64,000 bases of DNA from assembly GCF_003334305.1 (NCBI RefSeq), contig NZ_QOWS01000002.1, one strand, 5' to 3'. A program made the translations under genes and the position numbers. The notes beneath the pieces are model-generated. The model did not search any database. It was not told where the DNA came from and was given only the letters and a program-made list of their open reading frames with translations. This document shows positions 434-52,618 of the stretch, one piece after another; position 1 is the first letter of the stretch, and the number at the start of each line of letters is the position of its first letter. Source of the stretch: Escherichia coli (GTDB lineage Bacteria; Pseudomonadota; Gammaproteobacteria; Enterobacterales; Enterobacteriaceae).

Positions 434-734
434 ATTGCTGCCTCCCCTGCGTAATAAGGTTTGCGGTCGTGTCGACCTGAAATCAAACCTGTTTAGCAAG
501 GGAAGCAAAGGGGGCGGAGTCCAGTCAGTAGCAGGAGGGGCGCATACGCAGCCTCCCTCGCCATGCGGGGATTTAATCATCGGCATCATCTCATTTCCTC
601 GTCACAGTCTTAATCGTTAACGGAAGCCCGTTGCCGCCTGCGCTCCATAACGCGACATCCGGGAAATGTCTGGATTACCAGCAAATGTCAGGCCTGGCTC
701 CGCTCAGGCCGATGAAACACCCCCGCAAGGGGAA

Positions 735-2153
735 TTACGCGTTTTTCAACATCCACTCAATTTCTGTTTCTGTGATGAGGCGCTCAAACTGCAACAGCTC
801 ATCATTTTTACAGGCGTGATACACATGGCAAAACCGTTCGCCTAAATAGCGGCGCAGGTGATCATTCTCGATAAACTCACCCAGGGCATCGCTCTGGCGA
901 ATCGGGAAGGGTAAGCCTTCCTGTTCCAGCCCGTTGCCTTCGACTTCTTCCTGCAACGGCAGCTCGTTATCAAGGCCATGCAAAATACCGGCAAAAATCG
1001 CTGCCATCACCAGATATGGGTTGGCATCGGCACCCGCCACGCGATATTCCACGCGGTGATTATGACGGTCGCCGCACGGAATACGCAGGGCGACGGTGCG
1101 GTTGTTATGGCCCCACGACGCCTGCGTCGGCACATACATTCCCGGCTGGAAGCGGCGATACGAGTTCACGTTTGGTGCCAGCAACGCCATCGACGACGGC
1201 ATCAGGTCAATCATCCCGGCGAGCATCTTTTTCAGCAGCGGCGAATCTTCGCCTTCCGCGTCAGAAAGCACGTTCTCGCCACGGTTATTTTGCATACTGA
1301 TATGGATATGCATTCCGCTGCCCGCGTGCTCTTCATACGGCTTCGCCATAAAAGTGGCGTGCATCTTATGCTTTTCTGCCATCAGACGCACCAGGCGTTT
1401 TAGCGCCAGCGCATCATCGCAGGCTTCCAGCACGTTATCGGTATGGTAAAGGTTGATTTCAAACTGACCCGGCGAGGCTTCGGCGACCGCACCGTCGGCG
1501 GGAATTAACTGTAACTGCGCCAGTTCATCAATATCATTGAGCACATCGGCGAAGTGGTTGAGGTTATCAACGGAGTAAACCTGGCTTTGTGTATTGCGGT
1601 CATCGGTGCCGGGCGCGCAGGGCGGTTGCAGATACCCTTCAGCGTCGCGCTGACGATCCAGTAAATAGAACTCCAGCTCTACCGCTACAACCGGGAACAA
1701 TCCGCGCTGGCGTAGCTGCTGCCACAGGCGGTTAAGAACGTTCCGCGGCTCAACGTCAAAGGGAGCGCCATCTTCATCGACCATGGTCAGGAGCATCTGA
1801 CCGATAAACTCTGGATCGGCGGCAGAAGGGGTTAAGGAACCGAGAACAGGAACACAAGTACGATCCGGCTCGCCCATTTCCTGACCCAGACCCGCTTCTT
1901 CTACTACGTTGCCCAGAATATCCATTGCAAACACCGAGGCCGGGAAATAACACCCTTTCTCCAACTTCTTCAGGCTTGAAACAGGGATACGTTTTCCACG
2001 GAAGCAACCATTCAAATCAGTAAGTAAAACATCAACATATTGCGTATTCGGGTAGCGCTCCAGGTAGCGTTTCACTTCCTGCGTAAAGGCGCTACCCCGC
2101 CTCTCTTCTGACTGCTGAACAAAGTTCTCTACTTCAACGATATTGGTTTCCAT
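735..2153 (-). CDS. puuA: gamma-glutamylputrescine synthetase (glutamine synthetase family)
   Basis: Track ORF 735..2231; trimmed to the ATG at 2151-2153 (METNIVEVENF...) giving 472 aa, the length I recall for PuuA. Confidence 0.93.
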   Translation of the reverse strand: METNIVEVENFVQQSEERRGSAFTQEVKRYLERYPNTQYVDVLLTDLNGCFRGKRIPVSSLKKLEKGCYFPASVFAMDILGNVVEEAGLGQEMGEPDRTCVPVLGSLTPSAADPEFIGQMLLTMVDEDGAPFDVEPRNVLNRLWQQLRQRGLFPVVAVELEFYLLDRQRDAEGYLQPPCAPGTDDRNTQSQVYSVDNLNHFADVLNDIDELAQLQLIPADGAVAEASPGQFEINLYHTDNVLEACDDALALKRLVRLMAEKHKMHATFMAKPYEEHAGSGMHIHISMQNNRGENVLSDAEGEDSPLLKKMLAGMIDLMPSSMALLAPNVNSYRRFQPGMYVPTQASWGHNNRTVALRIPCGDRHNHRVEYRVAGADANPYLVMAAIFAGILHGLDNELPLQEEVEGNGLEQEGLPFPIRQSDALGEFIENDHLRRYLGERFCHVYHACKNDELLQFERLITETEIEWMLKNA

Positions 2154-3713: not shown

Positions 3714-3862
3714 TCTTTTTGTTCTGTAAGCCGGGTAAGCGCAATGCGCCCGGCAATCCATAAAGAATGTCGCCAGAAATAAACGGGCATACGGCCCGGG
3801 GATCTCTGCGCCCTGACGTTCACAAACTGCATATATCTGATAGACGTGAAACAGGAGTCATA

Positions 3863-5350
3863 ATGAATTTTCATCATCTGGCTTACTGGCAGGATAAAGC
3901 GTTAAGTCTCGCCATTGAAAACCGCTTATTTATTAACGGTGAATATACTGCTGCGGCGGAAAATGAAACCTTTGAAACCGTTGATCCGGTCACCCAGGCA
4001 CCGCTGGCGAAAATTGCCCGCGGCAAGAGCGTCGATATCGACCGTGCGGTGAGCGCAGCACGCGGCGTATTTGAACGCGGCGACTGGTCACTCTCTTCTC
4101 CGGCTAAACGTAAAGCGGTACTGAATAAACTCGCCGATTTAATGGAAGCCCACGCCGAAGAGCTGGCACTGCTGGAAACTCTCGACACCGGCAAACCGAT
4201 TCGTCACAGTCTGCGTGATGATATTCCCGGCGCGGCGCGCGCCATTCGCTGGTACGCCGAAGCGATCGACAAAGTGTATGGCGAAGTGGCGACCACCAGT
4301 AGCCATGAGCTGGCGATGATCGTGCGTGAACCGGTCGGCGTGATTGCCGCCATCGTGCCGTGGAACTTCCCGCTGTTGCTGACTTGCTGGAAACTCGGCC
4401 CGGCGCTGGCGGCGGGAAACAGCGTGATTCTAAAACCGTCTGAAAAATCACCGCTCAGTGCGATTCGTCTCGCGGGGCTGGCGAAAGAAGCAGGCTTGCC
4501 GGATGGTGTGTTGAACGTGGTGACGGGTTTTGGTCATGAAGCGGGGCAGGCGCTTTCGCGTCATAACGATATCGATGCCATCGCCTTTACCGGCTCCACG
4601 CGTACGGGTAAACAACTGCTGAAAGACGCGGGTGATAGCAACATGAAACGTGTCTGGCTGGAAGCGGGCGGCAAAAGCGCCAACATCGTTTTCGCCGATT
4701 GTCCGGATCTGCAAAAAGCGGCAAGCGCCACCGCCGCAGGCATCTTCTACAACCAGGGCCAGGTGTGCATCGCCGGAACGCGTTTGTTACTGGAAGAGAG
4801 CATTGCCGATGAATTCTTAGCCCTGTTAAAACAGCAGGCGCAAAACTGGCAGCCGGGTCATCCACTTGATCCCGCAACCACCATGGGCACCTTAATCGAC
4901 TGCGCCCACGCCGACTCGGTGCATAGCTTTATTCGTGAAGGCGAAAGCAAAGGGCAACTGCTGCTGGATGGCCGTAACGCCGAGCTGGCTGCCGCCATCG
5001 GCCCGACCATCTTTGTGGATGTAGACCCGAATGCGTCCTTAAGCCGCGAAGAGATTTTCGGCCCGGTGTTGGTGGTCACGCGTTTCACATCAGAAGATCA
5101 GGCGCTTCAGCTTGCTAACGACAGCCAGTACGGCCTCGGCGCGGCGGTATGGACGCGCGACCTCTCCCGCGCGCACCGCATGAGCCGTCGCCTGAAAGCC
5201 GGTTCCGTCTTCGTCAATAACTACAACGACGGCGATATGACCGTGCCGTTTGGCGGCTATAAGCAGAGCGGCAACGGTCGCGACAAATCCCTGCATGCCC
5301 TTGAAAAATTCACTGAACTGAAAACCATCTGGATAAGCCTGGAGGCCTGA
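3863..5350 (+). CDS. puuC: gamma-glutamyl-gamma-aminobutyraldehyde dehydrogenase (aldehyde dehydrogenase family)
   Basis: Track ORF 3767..5350 trimmed to ATG 3863 (MNFHHLAYWQDK...) giving 495 aa; aldehyde dehydrogenase motifs (FTGSTRTG, EAGGKS). Confidence 0.92.
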   Translation: MNFHHLAYWQDKALSLAIENRLFINGEYTAAAENETFETVDPVTQAPLAKIARGKSVDIDRAVSAARGVFERGDWSLSSPAKRKAVLNKLADLMEAHAEELALLETLDTGKPIRHSLRDDIPGAARAIRWYAEAIDKVYGEVATTSSHELAMIVREPVGVIAAIVPWNFPLLLTCWKLGPALAAGNSVILKPSEKSPLSAIRLAGLAKEAGLPDGVLNVVTGFGHEAGQALSRHNDIDAIAFTGSTRTGKQLLKDAGDSNMKRVWLEAGGKSANIVFADCPDLQKAASATAAGIFYNQGQVCIAGTRLLLEESIADEFLALLKQQAQNWQPGHPLDPATTMGTLIDCAHADSVHSFIREGESKGQLLLDGRNAELAAAIGPTIFVDVDPNASLSREEIFGPVLVVTRFTSEDQALQLANDSQYGLGAAVWTRDLSRAHRMSRRLKAGSVFVNNYNDGDMTVPFGGYKQSGNGRDKSLHALEKFTELKTIWISLEA

Positions 5351-37041: not shown

Positions 37042-37284
37042 TGTTTTATCAGGCTCCTCCAGATAATTGTCGTCATGCCGGAAACCCCTGGCGGGGCTAT
37101 TTTACCGCGACAATTCATTCAGATCATCAATAGTCAGGGAAGGAAGTAGCAATATTAGCTAACTAATCAATGCGTTGATTGTAAATCCAGCTAAGAGGTG
37201 AGGTTTTCAGAGCAGACAACGGTGAAATGTCATGGTATTGTTACGTTTAGGTAACAAGAAATTTGTCTGCACAAGGATTACATC

Positions 37285-46482: not shown

Positions 46483-47715
46483 TTATGCCGCCAGCACGCG
46501 GTTGCGACCATCATTTTTCGCCCGATACAAAGCATCATCAACGCGTTTAAACAGTTCATCGATGCTTTCATTTCCTTCGTGATGCGCCACACCAATGCTG
46601 ACGGTAAAGCGTGGTAAGCCCGAAATACTCACTTTTGCCACGCTTACGCGGATAGTTTCAGCCAGCGAAAGCGCGGTATCCAGTGGGGTTCTTGGTAGCA
46701 ATAAGACAAACTCTTCGCCTCCCCAACGAAACACCAAATCGCCTTTGCGAGCGCAACTTTCGAGGGTGCGGGCGAGGGCGCATAACACCTCATCACCTTT
46801 AGAATGCCCATAGAGATCGTTAATGTGTTTAAAACGATCGGTGTCGATGAGCAACAAGCTGTAATCCTGAGCGATGGCGAGATGCTGCATTTGGCCTGGT
46901 TCCGTAATGTGATAAAACTGTCGCCGATTCAGTAATCCGGTCATCGCGTCATGGTGAGCAGCATGTTCCAGCTGCTCCTCCAGCCGTTTTTGCTCAGTAA
47001 TATCATGCACAATACATAACATGAGCTTGTCGCCATAAATTTCAATCGGTCCGGCATAGGTCTGCACATGACGAGTAGATCCATCCGCCAGTTTATGAAC
47101 AAAATTCAAAGGTTTATGACCGCCGGGTAAATGCGAAATTTCATGCATGATAGGCATGACGCGACGCCCGAGCATATTTATTTCCCAGGTATGTTTCTGG
47201 CACATCGTTTCATGGTTATAACCATAGAAATTGAGCGCGGCGAGGTTAGCATCGACGATTTGTCCATCTCGTGACGGGTCAATCAACAACATTGGTGCAG
47301 AGTTAGTCAGAAAAAAGCGCGCATAAAAACCTTGTTTTTTGCGCTGATAATTTGCCGAGCGACTGGCTTTTAACCCCAGCGTTGCCGGCGCTTCGATACC
47401 TTCGAAAATAATCACCGGTTCTGTTTCTGTCAGCTCTCGCAAAACAAGCCGACAGCTTAATGCTGTTTCCTCTTCTTTACGCTGAACAGTGAGGATTTCG
47501 ATAATATCGTGTTGGTTTTGCAGATCGGAGAGGTATTTCGGCAGTTCTTTTTGTGAGGAGACGGAATAGGGACCGGTTCGTAGCTGACTAAACGTGAGGT
47601 CTTGCATCAACAGTCGCGCCGCGCTATTGGCATAAATTAACTGTTCCTCAAAGGGCGAAACGATCCAGACAGGACTGGTGAGTAAGTCCAGGGTATTGAA
47701 GTTGTGCGTAATCAT
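46483..47715 (-). CDS. dgcM: diguanylate cyclase (PAS-PAS-GGDEF)
   Basis: Track ORF 46483..47775 trimmed to the ATG at 47713-47715 (MITHNFNTLDLL...) giving 410 aa; GGEEF active-site motif present. Confidence 0.9.
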   Translation of the reverse strand: MITHNFNTLDLLTSPVWIVSPFEEQLIYANSAARLLMQDLTFSQLRTGPYSVSSQKELPKYLSDLQNQHDIIEILTVQRKEEETALSCRLVLRELTETEPVIIFEGIEAPATLGLKASRSANYQRKKQGFYARFFLTNSAPMLLIDPSRDGQIVDANLAALNFYGYNHETMCQKHTWEINMLGRRVMPIMHEISHLPGGHKPLNFVHKLADGSTRHVQTYAGPIEIYGDKLMLCIVHDITEQKRLEEQLEHAAHHDAMTGLLNRRQFYHITEPGQMQHLAIAQDYSLLLIDTDRFKHINDLYGHSKGDEVLCALARTLESCARKGDLVFRWGGEEFVLLLPRTPLDTALSLAETIRVSVAKVSISGLPRFTVSIGVAHHEGNESIDELFKRVDDALYRAKNDGRNRVLAA

Positions 47716-47948
47716 TGAGATCCCATTATTTTTATCAATTTTTGTTGCTATCCGATCGCAAAAAAGCCACGTCATATGATCAGATAATTCTGATAATGAT
47801 AGACGCTATTTAACACTTCACACGGTTTGTATACGGAAAAGCATTTTGCTTTTTGTATTCAATTTAGACAGAATTTTATTAATCATTTCAGGGTAATGGG
47901 GTGATGAGATGTTGCGTAACAGGGCCAGAAGGCTAGACTACAAAATAA

Positions 47949-48953
<1,005 letters not shown>

Positions 48954-48999
48954 CAAAAGCAATTTTTCCGGCTGTCTGTATACAAAAACGCCGCAAAGT

Positions 49000-49013
49000 T
49001 TGAGCGAAGTCAA
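49000..49013. promoter_or_regulatory. FNR box of the fnrS promoter
   Basis: TTGAGCGAAGTCAA centred about 42 bp upstream of the FnrS 5' end, the class II activation spacing. Confidence 0.7.
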
Positions 49014-49048
49014 TAAACTCTCTACCCATTCAGGGCAATATCTCCATT

Positions 49049-49170
49049 GCAGGTGAATGCAACGTCAAGCGATGGGCGTTGCGCTCCATATTGTCTTACT
49101 TCCTTTTTTGAATTACTGCATAGCATAATTGATTCGTACGACGCCGACTTTGATGAGTCGGCTTTTTTTT
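49049..49170 (+). ncRNA. fnrS: FNR-activated small RNA FnrS
   Basis: GCAGGUGAAUGCAACGUCAAGCGAUGGGCGUUGCGCUCC...GACGCCGACUUUGAUGAGUCGGCUUUUUUUU matches FnrS as I remember it, ending in a hairpin plus U8 terminator; track ORF 49047..49265 over it is judged non-coding. Confidence 0.85.
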
Positions 49171-49227
49171 GCCTGTTATTTATCAGCGTCTACCCTTTAA
49201 GAGTCCACCCAATGACCGGAGGGAAAT

Positions 49228-49401
49228 ATGACGACACTTATTTATTTGCAAATTCCTGTCCCTGAACCGATTCCTGGCGATCCTGTTCCAGTGCCCGATC
49301 CGATCCCTCGCCCGCAACCCATGCCTGACCCACCACCCGATGAAGAACCGATTAAATTGTCGCATCGTGAGCGTAGATCTGCGAGGATACGCGCCTGCTA
49401 A
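49228..49401 (+). CDS. unlisted 57-codon proline-rich small ORF immediately upstream of dbpA
   Basis: GGAGGG Shine-Dalgarno at 49218-49223, ATG 49228, stop TAA 49399-49401; encodes MTTLIYLQIPVPEPIPGDPVPVPDPIPRPQPMPDPPPDEEPIKLSHRERRSARIRAC. Below the 60-aa cutoff of the ORF track. Coding status not proven. Confidence 0.45.
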   Translation: MTTLIYLQIPVPEPIPGDPVPVPDPIPRPQPMPDPPPDEEPIKLSHRERRSARIRAC

Positions 49402-49430
49402 CTTTGCGTCGATGACCACGAGAATAGATT

Positions 49431-50804
49431 GTGACCGCTTTTTCTACCCTGAATGTTTTGCCTCCCGCCCAACTCACGAACCTTAATGAGTTGGGTTATT
49501 TAACCATGACGCCGGTGCAGGCCGCCGCGCTTCCGGCGATCCTTGCCGGAAAAGATGTTCGCGTGCAGGCGAAAACCGGCAGCGGCAAAACGGCGGCTTT
49601 TGGCCTCGGCTTGTTACAGCAAATTGATGCGTCGCTATTTCAAACCCAGGCTTTAGTGCTGTGTCCTACGCGTGAACTGGCGGATCAGGTGGCAGGTGAA
49701 TTGCGTCGGCTGGCGCGTTTTCTGCCAAATACCAAAATTTTGACGTTGTGCGGTGGTCAACCGTTCGGTATGCAGCGTGATTCGTTGCAACATGCGCCGC
49801 ATATTATCGTGGCAACGCCGGGTCGTTTGCTGGATCACTTGCAAAAAGGCACGGTATCACTGGATGCGCTGAATACTTTGGTGATGGATGAGGCCGACCG
49901 CATGCTGGATATGGGATTTAGCGATGCCATTGATGATGTCATCCGTTTTGCGCCTGCATCTCGACAGACGCTTCTGTTTTCGGCAACCTGGCCGGAAGCC
50001 ATCGCCGCAATCAGCGGACGAGTGCAACGCGATCCTTTGGCGATTGAAATTGACTCAACAGATGCTTTGCCACCCATTGAACAACAATTTTATGAGACAT
50101 CCAGCAAAGGCAAAATTCCTCTGTTGCAACGGTTATTAAGCTTGCATCAGCCATCCTCTTGCGTGGTGTTTTGCAATACCAAAAAAGATTGCCAGGCTGT
50201 CTGCGACGCGCTGAATGAAGTAGGGCAAAGTGCATTGTCGTTACACGGCGATCTGGAGCAACGCGATCGCGATCAGACTCTGGTACGTTTTGCTAACGGT
50301 AGCGCCCGTGTACTGGTTGCTACTGATGTTGCTGCGCGTGGTCTGGATATTAAATCGCTTGAGCTGGTGGTGAACTTTGAGCTGGCGTGGGACCCTGAAG
50401 TTCATGTACATCGCATCGGTCGTACAGCTCGTGCAGGAAATAGCGGTCTGGCGATCAGTTTCTGTGCTCCGGAAGAAGCACAGCGGGCCAATATCATTTC
50501 TGACATGTTGCAGATAAAACTTAACTGGCAAACGCCGCCAGCTAATAGTTCCATTTTGCCGCTGGAAGCAGAAATGGCAACGTTGTGTATCGATGGCGGG
50601 AAAAAAGCCAAAATGCGCCCGGGTGATGTATTAGGTGCGCTGACAGGAGACATCGGGCTTGATGGCGTAGATATTGGCAAAATCGCCGTGCATCCGGCGC
50701 ATGTCTATGTCGCGGTCCGTCAGGCTGTTGCTCATAAAGCATGGAAACAGTTACAGGGCGGGAAGATTAAAGGAAAAACGTGCCGGGTGCGGTTATTAAA
50801 ATAA
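49431..50804 (+). CDS. dbpA: ATP-dependent RNA helicase DbpA (DEAD-box, 23S rRNA-specific)
   Basis: 457-aa ORF with GTG start; motifs AKTGSGKT, DEAD and SAT present, plus C-terminal RNA-binding domain. Confidence 0.95.
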   Translation: MTAFSTLNVLPPAQLTNLNELGYLTMTPVQAAALPAILAGKDVRVQAKTGSGKTAAFGLGLLQQIDASLFQTQALVLCPTRELADQVAGELRRLARFLPNTKILTLCGGQPFGMQRDSLQHAPHIIVATPGRLLDHLQKGTVSLDALNTLVMDEADRMLDMGFSDAIDDVIRFAPASRQTLLFSATWPEAIAAISGRVQRDPLAIEIDSTDALPPIEQQFYETSSKGKIPLLQRLLSLHQPSSCVVFCNTKKDCQAVCDALNEVGQSALSLHGDLEQRDRDQTLVRFANGSARVLVATDVAARGLDIKSLELVVNFELAWDPEVHVHRIGRTARAGNSGLAISFCAPEEAQRANIISDMLQIKLNWQTPPANSSILPLEAEMATLCIDGGKKAKMRPGDVLGALTGDIGLDGVDIGKIAVHPAHVYVAVRQAVAHKAWKQLQGGKIKGKTCRVRLLK

Positions 50805-50840
50805 TGAAATGTTGAATTGCCGGGTGCAAGAGTAAACATC

Positions 50841-50926
50841 TTATGCGGGATTGCCGGATGCGACGCTGGCCGCGTCTTATGCGGCCTCCATAAGAGTAGC
50901 CCGATACGCTTGCGCATCGGGCGCTA
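50841..50926. repeat. REP-type extragenic palindromes between convergent dbpA and ttcA
   Basis: TTGCCGGATGCGACGCTGGCCGCGTCTTATGCGGCCTCC plus a second dyad CCCGAT...ATCGGG. Confidence 0.5.
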
Positions 50927-50932
50927 TCCTGG

Positions 50933-51868
50933 TTATTTCACTTCAACCACATTCAGCCGTAACTCATCCAACTGATTTTCATCTTCTTCTGGCTGCCAGC
51001 CCGCCGGTTGTAGTGGGATCTCTTCGCGATCAAACGCCAGATCACCCCCGTTAACCACTTCAGAACCGTGGGTAATGCCTTTGAAATCGAACAGGTTGGT
51101 ATCGCACAGATGCGACGGCACCACATTCTGCATCGCGCTGAACATCGTCTCGATACGCCCTGGATAACGTTTATCCCAGTCACGCAACATGTCAGCAATC
51201 ACCTGACGTTGCAGGTTAGGCTGTGAACCGCACAGGTTGCACGGAATAATCGGGAACGCTTTTGCATCGGCAAATCGCTGAATATCTTTCTCGCGGCAGT
51301 AGGCCAGCGGACGAATAACGATATGTTTGCCATCATCGCTCATCAGTTTCGGAGGCATACCTTTCATCTTGCCGCCGTAGAACATATTTAAGAACAACGT
51401 TTGCAGGATATCGTCACGATGGTGACCCAACGCGATCTTCGTCGCCCCCAGTTCCGTTGCGGTACGATAAAGGATACCGCGACGAAGGCGAGAACACAGT
51501 GAGCAAGTGGTTTTGCCCTCTGGAATCTTCTCTTTCACGATACCGTAAGTATTCTCTTCAACAATCTTGTACTCAACGCCCAGCTTTTCAAGATACTCGG
51601 GCAGAACGTGTTCCGGGAAGCCCGGTTGCTTTTGATCGAGGTTAACAGCCACCAGCGAAAAATTGATTGGCGCGCTTTGCTGCAAATTGCGCAGAATCTC
51701 CAGCATGGTATAGCTGTCTTTACCCCCGGAGAGGCAAACCATGATGCGATCGCCTTCTTCAATCATATTGAAGTCAGCAATGGCTTCGCCCACGTTACGA
51801 CGCAGACGTTTTTGTAATTTGTTCAGGTTGTATTGTTCTTTCTTACTAATTTCTTGATTTTGCGACAT
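50933..51868 (-). CDS. ttcA: tRNA 2-thiocytidine(32) synthetase (PP-loop ATPase)
   Basis: 311-aa ORF with PP-loop SGGKDS and Cys motifs; N-terminus here is [18 protein letters not shown]. Confidence 0.92.
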
Positions 51869-52010
51869 TTAAAAGCGACTCAATTCGTTATATGGCATCA
51901 GAAGAGTATGCGTCATGCCGGAACGCCCAGCATAAGAAATCTGATATAAAAACTGTGGCGTGTATGGTACGGATTAGAGGGGAAAATGTCAGCACATTTG
52001 CGAAATGAAT

Positions 52011-52037
52011 CAAAAAGCCCGCAGCAATGTGCGGGCG
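52011..52037 (-). terminator. rho-independent terminator after uspF
   Basis: On the reverse strand GCCCGC-loop-GCGGGC followed by UUUUU, immediately 3' of the uspF stop. Confidence 0.6.
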
Positions 52038-52043
52038 TTAGTG

Positions 52044-52559
<516 letters not shown>

Positions 52560-52585
52560 TTAGATCAAAGGAGGAAGAATAAGCA

Positions 52586-52611
52586 GAAAAAGCCCGCCAT
52601 AACAGCGGGCA
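52586..52611 (-). terminator. rho-independent terminator after ompN
   Basis: Reverse strand GCCCGCUGUUAUGGCGGGC followed by UUUUUCU, just 3' of the ompN stop. Confidence 0.6.
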
Positions 52612-52618
52612 GGAGGAT

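Follow-up and report, generated by a model that had tools for sequence, protein, structure and literature searches.

What does it mean that ttcA and uspF stand side by side in a stretch of Escherichia coli DNA, and which form of the ttcA 5' end is the original one? The window, as the whole 64-kb stretch analysed here is called, contains ttcA on the minus strand at 50933..51868, identified from its open reading frame and NCBIfam and encoding the tRNA 2-thiocytidine(32) synthetase of 311 amino acids with the N-terminus MSQNQEIS. The protein matches the equivalog NF007972 with 513.6 bits against a cut-off of 272, and its sequence contains the PP-loop motif SGGKDS (residue 47) and two CxxC motifs, CSLC at residue 122 and CNLC at residue 210. 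Directly upstream on the same strand lies uspF (52044..52478), encoding universal stress protein F of 144 amino acids, which is covered over residues 1-144 of 144 by the equivalog NF011581 (303.3 bits, cut-off 166) and is collinear with its K-12 counterpart, b1376. The 175 bp between the ttcA ATG and the uspF stop codon (51869..52043, minus strand) hold native intergenic sequence, presumably including the promoter and 5' UTR of ttcA, and the intrinsic terminator of uspF (hairpin GCCCGCACATTGCTGCGGGC followed by TTTTT; 52017..52036, minus strand), and nothing else. A preliminary description had measured these 175 bp to the terminator; the figure is right as the distance to the stop codon, the terminator stem being about 148 bp from the ATG. 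The surroundings are those of the K-12 locus, with the small RNAs FnrS (49049..49166, 135 bits) and MicC (53977..54097, 125 bits) at their K-12 positions in the flanking locus on both sides, and the dbpA-ttcA intergenic region (50805..50932) contains REP-like palindromic units recognised by eye, such as GCCGGATGCGACGCTGGCCGCGTCTTATGCGGCC.

The arrangement in K-12 is different. According to the annotation of MG1655, the order is dbpA, ttcA (b1344), the "cryptic prophage Rac" at 1411899..1434958, the pseudogene ttcC (b4638), uspF and ompN, so that the 23-kb Rac element separates ttcA from uspF, just as the preliminary description states. The intR gene of Rac stands on the ttcA strand, 51 bp upstream of the ATG, and beyond it come xisR, recET and further Rac genes. 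The ttcA flank of K-12 aligns to 46920..51861 of the window and the uspF flank to 51819..53859, joining directly and overlapping at 51819..51861, and together with the open reading frames these alignments establish the adjacency of the two genes. The interior of K-12 Rac (4950-27958 of the extracted K-12 locus) has no blastn match in the 64-kb window at E<=1e-3, in keeping with the earlier remark that integrase and phage genes are absent between ttcA and uspF. The broader statement that the chromosome lacks Rac holds for the ttcA site and for the 64-kb window, which was the scope of the search, since Rac-like phages can sit elsewhere.

The window follows 1358756..1447141 of MG1655 (88 kb) collinearly, the exceptions being Rac, IS5F and a repeat of 122 bp. 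The four collinear blocks are 98.4-99.1% identical, corresponding to 0.9-1.6% divergence in the flanks, and IS5F, found between ynaI and ynaJ in K-12, is missing at the junction 37159..37162. The 4 bp (CTAA) in which the two K-12 alignments overlap at this junction are compatible with a target-site duplication of IS5. The further 122 bp that K-12 carries between puuR and puuC, missing in the window at about 3760..3762, look by eye like an ERIC/IRU-type intergenic repeat. Positions 40000-64000 of the window (24 kb) are approximately 100% identical to wild strains, including A7 (from an orangutan), H15, TUM1887 and others. The source is thus a non-K-12 E. coli, a conclusion carried by flank divergence and the missing IS5F. 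The preliminary description was correct in calling the strain non-K-12, but its use of the empty junction as the marker fails, because a Rac-cured K-12 would show the same junction and the empty junction alone therefore cannot distinguish the two.

The point at which the two K-12 flanks meet in the window defines an attachment site. A block of 26 bp, TTGTTCAGGTTGTATTGTTCTTTCTT, at 51819..51844, covering ttcA codons 9-17 (KKEQYNLNK), is identical at 26 of 26 bases in the window, at K-12 attL (4900-4925) and at K-12 attR (27960-27985, both in coordinates of the extracted K-12 locus), and this three-way identity is the reason why the two flank alignments overlap. Beyond the core, the window matches the host arm at attR, represented by ttcC, and not the phage arm at attL. 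The whole flank from attR to uspF in K-12 corresponds to the window from 51819 onward, save one base in a run of A, and the 17 codons of ttcC at attR translate identically to the start of TtcA in the window. The K-12 protein instead begins with MQENQQIT, encoded by phage-side DNA just outside the 26-bp core, and the native start, together with its upstream region, is displaced by 23 kb in the K-12 lysogen, where it stands with ttcC and not with ttcA. Both N-termini are given exactly in the preliminary description, and the alignment it had proposed confirmed that MG1655 lacks the ttcA-uspF adjacency and has different ttcA 5' codons. The arrangement of attB, attL and attR fits the Campbell model. 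With the core located by comparison with attL and attR and both flanks joined directly there, as the preliminary description had surmised, the window almost certainly represents an unoccupied attB for Rac-family prophages inside the 5' end of ttcA.

It might be argued that MSQNQEIS and MQENQQIT are ordinary alleles of ttcA that diverged independently of any prophage, given that the N-termini of TtcA vary among Enterobacterales. The distribution of differences, however, is far from ordinary: the native first eight codons (51845..51868, minus strand) and the phage-derived segment agree at 17 of 24 nucleotides, so that 7 of 24 differ just outside the core against about 1% in the flanks, and the change from one sequence type to the other falls at the att core. 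Across the whole protein, the window and K-12 differ at residues 2, 3, 6, 8 and 290 only. Ordinary divergence is ultimately refuted by K-12 itself, in which ttcC holds codons of the window type, and by an excision experiment that converts one form into the other; it retains practically no probability. The exchange of coding sequence by the prophage, as the preliminary description had proposed, is instead established by the three-way alignment, the identity of ttcC and the published excision result. No K-12 attR without the native codons was seen, nor any Rac-free genome combining MQENQQIT with the native upstream region. As a separate observation, residue 290 (codon 50999..51001) is G in the window and in AGR5151 and C in K-12 MG1655, and C290 appears to be a substitution of the K-12 lineage in the C-terminal tail of TtcA.

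The empty site with its native TtcA start has been known since its publication in 2015. Liu et al. (2015, Sci Rep 5:16074, PMC4632033) placed Rac between ttcA and ttcC', reported that its excision is precise and dependent on XisR, which binds attR, and found that excision, whether natural or driven by XisR, alters four N-terminal residues of TtcA, attL and attR being imperfectly matched. In the same study (PMC4632033), 14 Rac-free E. coli and Shigella strains, among them HS, IAI1 and UMN026, were reported to carry the post-excision variant, named the ancient copy; the two TtcA variants differed in behaviour under carbenicillin, and CFT073 was listed as an exception that had no Rac-like prophage in ttcA. 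The attB/TtcA' locus of the K-12 delta-rac strain (PMC4632033) has the same site, core and native N-terminus as the window. Unlike that strain, the window has flanks 98.4-99.1% identical to K-12, lacks IS5F and encodes G290 rather than C in TtcA.

A second family member, Rac-SA53, has attL and attR of the same architecture and makes it possible to narrow the core. The same attB is used by Rac of K-12, by Rac-SA53 and by CP-933R / Sp10 of O157:H7, none of which is present in the window, and in all of them the phage-supplied ttcA start follows intR at a distance of about 51 bp. The att sites annotated in the phage record KU052037 (Rac-SA53) are also 26 bp long and occupy the same position, and the integrase genes of Rac-SA53 and K-12 are about 96% identical in DNA. 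Rac-SA53 differs in its start, MQENQKNTKKEIYNL, with residues altered inside what is the core region of K-12 Rac. Its two annotated att sites (722..747 and 1462..1487 of the extracted segments) differ within their 26 bp, and they have in common with each other and with the window only the 15 bp TTGTTCAGGTTGTAT at 51819..51833. Provided that the specificity of both integrases is the same, strand exchange is limited to these 15 bp; the comparison suggests that the strand-exchange region probably lies within 51819..51833.

Next to the core, on the side that is exchanged for phage sequence in lysogens, a candidate IHF site is found at 51847..51859 on the plus strand as a pattern match (TAATTTCTTGATT) to the consensus TAAnnnnTTGATW. 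Kasho et al. (2021, PMC8407004) described IHF consensus sequences adjoining both K-12 attL (ttcA) and ttcC, with an IHF peak at attL only. The ttcC copy, which has no published IHF peak, is the one with the sequence of the window. The phage collection searched yielded no attP from a free phage in which phage arms flank the core on either side, all six matches being prophage-derived records that include host ttcA/dbpA flanks, and attP was reconstructed from attL and attR only.

Taken together with the published work, these features point to a mechanism in which Rac-family phages integrate by means of the tyrosine integrase IntR, assisted in excision by XisR, with recombination presumably occurring in a short core within ttcA codons 9-17 (26 bp of identity for K-12 Rac, 15 bp shared by two members). 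Because the core lies inside ttcA, integration severs the gene from its native promoter region and from codons 1-8. To make up for this loss, the phage carries beside the core, directly downstream of intR, a diverged version of codons 1-8 that includes a start codon and is preceded by about 51 bp of its own upstream sequence. Lysogens accordingly produce TtcA starting with MQENQQIT, and the native start remains at attR in the form of ttcC, a pseudogene. The window represents the phage-free state, with the native promoter region, the MSQNQEIS start and uspF 175 bp upstream, and its attB can be regarded as a candidate substrate for IntR-mediated integration.

The principle is familiar from phage 21 and e14, which integrate into icd and, like Rac, keep the host gene intact by means of a diverged duplicate of the gene end beside the core. 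Phage 21 and e14 replace the 3' end of icd, whereas in the Rac family it is the 5' end of ttcA that is exchanged, and these phages must therefore also supply a start codon, a ribosome-binding site and transcription signals. Regarding these signals, a promoter scan of the native ttcA intergenic region returned one weak sigma-70-like site (51992..51964), with fewer sites than in shuffled sequences. In K-12, scanning intR and the spacer gave no site on the minus strand over the 900 bp next to ttcA, including the 3' end of intR, and a terminator scan between intR and ttcA found none. The scans thus lend no support to the transcriptional step, which, including co-transcription with intR, is proposed conditionally: in lysogens, ttcA would be transcribed from phage DNA, either by read-through from intR or from a promoter in the 3' end of intR.

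How common is the empty site? The census set comprised 5,426 complete E. coli genomes, of which 5,411 had any match, and three site states were distinguished. The empty site, defined by the 1.6-kb ttcA-uspF stretch of the window as one contiguous match, is present in 2,488 of the 5,426 genomes (46%) and is the commonest state among complete E. coli genomes. A Rac-type integrase beside ttcA, recognised by the K-12 junction of ttcA and the 3' part of intR, is present in 1,880 genomes, and a decayed remnant of 2.3 kb in 1,044. The three classes sum to 5,412 against 5,411 matched genomes, so these states cover almost all of the matched genomes.

The remnant, as seen in AGR5151 and CFT073, retains the MQENQQIT start together with the final 231 bp of the integrase. 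It also holds part of a DUF1627 gene and a metal ABC permease gene with a frameshift; attR, ttcC and some 100 bp of native upstream sequence are gone. Examples include CP097370 (3101..5345 of the extracted locus) and CFT073, NC_004431 (30601..32925 of the extracted locus). Since attR and ttcC have been lost, reversion is precluded and the phage-type start has become fixed in these genomes. The membership of CFT073 in this class is probably the reason why Liu et al. 2015 listed it as an exception. The remnant in CFT073 and AGR5151 occupies the same locus as the window, from dbpA-ttcA to uspF-ompN, and the window has none of its features. This class also bears on the suggestion that the adjacency in the window was produced by a deletion, or by an assembly collapse, that removed a prophage. 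Real deletion remnants, as seen in 1,044 genomes, keep the 231-bp integrase fragment and lack attR and ttcC. The contiguous junction of the window, by contrast, recurs in 2,488 complete genomes and equals the expected attB base for base; deletion or collapse is rejected on these grounds as vanishingly improbable.

Whether the empty site of the window was always empty is a separate matter. An ancestral Rac-like prophage at ttcA could have been excised precisely by IntR/XisR, regenerating attB and the native 5' end from ttcC, and the published precise excision in K-12 indeed yields exactly the sequence of the window (PMC4632033). The K-12 attR flank is identical to the window from 51819 on except for the 1-base indel. 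In addition, the site is taken up by an integrase or a remnant in 54% of complete E. coli genomes, which indicates that its occupancy is common and old. Precise excision, however, is scarless and leaves nothing that would speak positively for curing; all six genomes that are approximately 100% identical over the 24 kb are also empty at the site, and so are outgroup Escherichia and Citrobacter. With the outgroups empty, a never-occupied history is at least as parsimonious as curing, and we regard a cured lysogen as a possible but rather doubtful origin of the window. Either way, the present state of the site is that of an unoccupied attB with the native ttcA start.

The polarity of the exchange emerges from a scan of Enterobacterales, in which one genome per species was searched with a degenerate pattern for TtcA residues 10-27, yielding at least 120 loci. 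In at least 8 of them, found in Citrobacter species, in E. whittamii and in a cryptic lineage of Escherichia, uspF lies directly upstream of ttcA, and every one of those listed starts with MSQNQ[ED][IF]S. The intergenic region between the two genes is 97-98% identical to that of the window in other Escherichia and 86-88% identical in Citrobacter. The shared adjacency, the homologous spacer and the MSQNQ starts in Escherichia and Citrobacter mean that the arrangement of the window is ancestral for this clade.

Beyond this clade, integrases beside ttcA are frequent. Among the matches listed, 110 loci have 400 nt or more of upstream sequence, and in 56 of these an IntR homologue or fragment encoded on the ttcA strand ends no more than 400 nt before the gene; many of the sampled loci have a short upstream part, so "fragment" often reflects truncation of the locus and not of the gene. 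Of the 35 measurable loci among the matches listed, 26 have a spacer of 51-52 nt between the integrase stop codon and the ttcA start. The genera among the listed matches with an integrase beside ttcA include Enterobacter, Citrobacter, Serratia, Erwinia, Pantoea and Hafnia. Again among the matches listed, the integrase-adjacent loci have Q at residue 2 of TtcA in 44 cases and S in 5, and the remaining loci have Q in 14 cases and S in 35 (Fisher's exact p = 5e-10, without correction for phylogeny). The ttcA site thus looks like an integration hot spot across the whole order Enterobacterales. A further-reaching proposal, which we advance tentatively as one that could about as easily fail as hold, is that Rac belongs to an IntR-type family targeting ttcA codons 9-17 across Enterobacterales, whose portable starts, along with whatever sequences drive their transcription, repeatedly overwrote the native start and often became fixed after the prophage decayed.

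For the locus itself, the finding has little significance beyond annotation. The native TtcA start and the empty attB can serve strain typing, and the site offers a candidate landing place for IntR-based integration. It also exposes a reference bias, in that the TtcA N-terminus of K-12 is phage-derived, and its expression signals presumably are as well. A prophage that permanently rewrites the 5' end of a host gene is a neat example that extends known biology and opens no new question. Should the broader proposal on the IntR-type family be true, many ttcA 5' ends annotated as native would be phage fossils, and MSQNQEIS of the window would be a surviving original.
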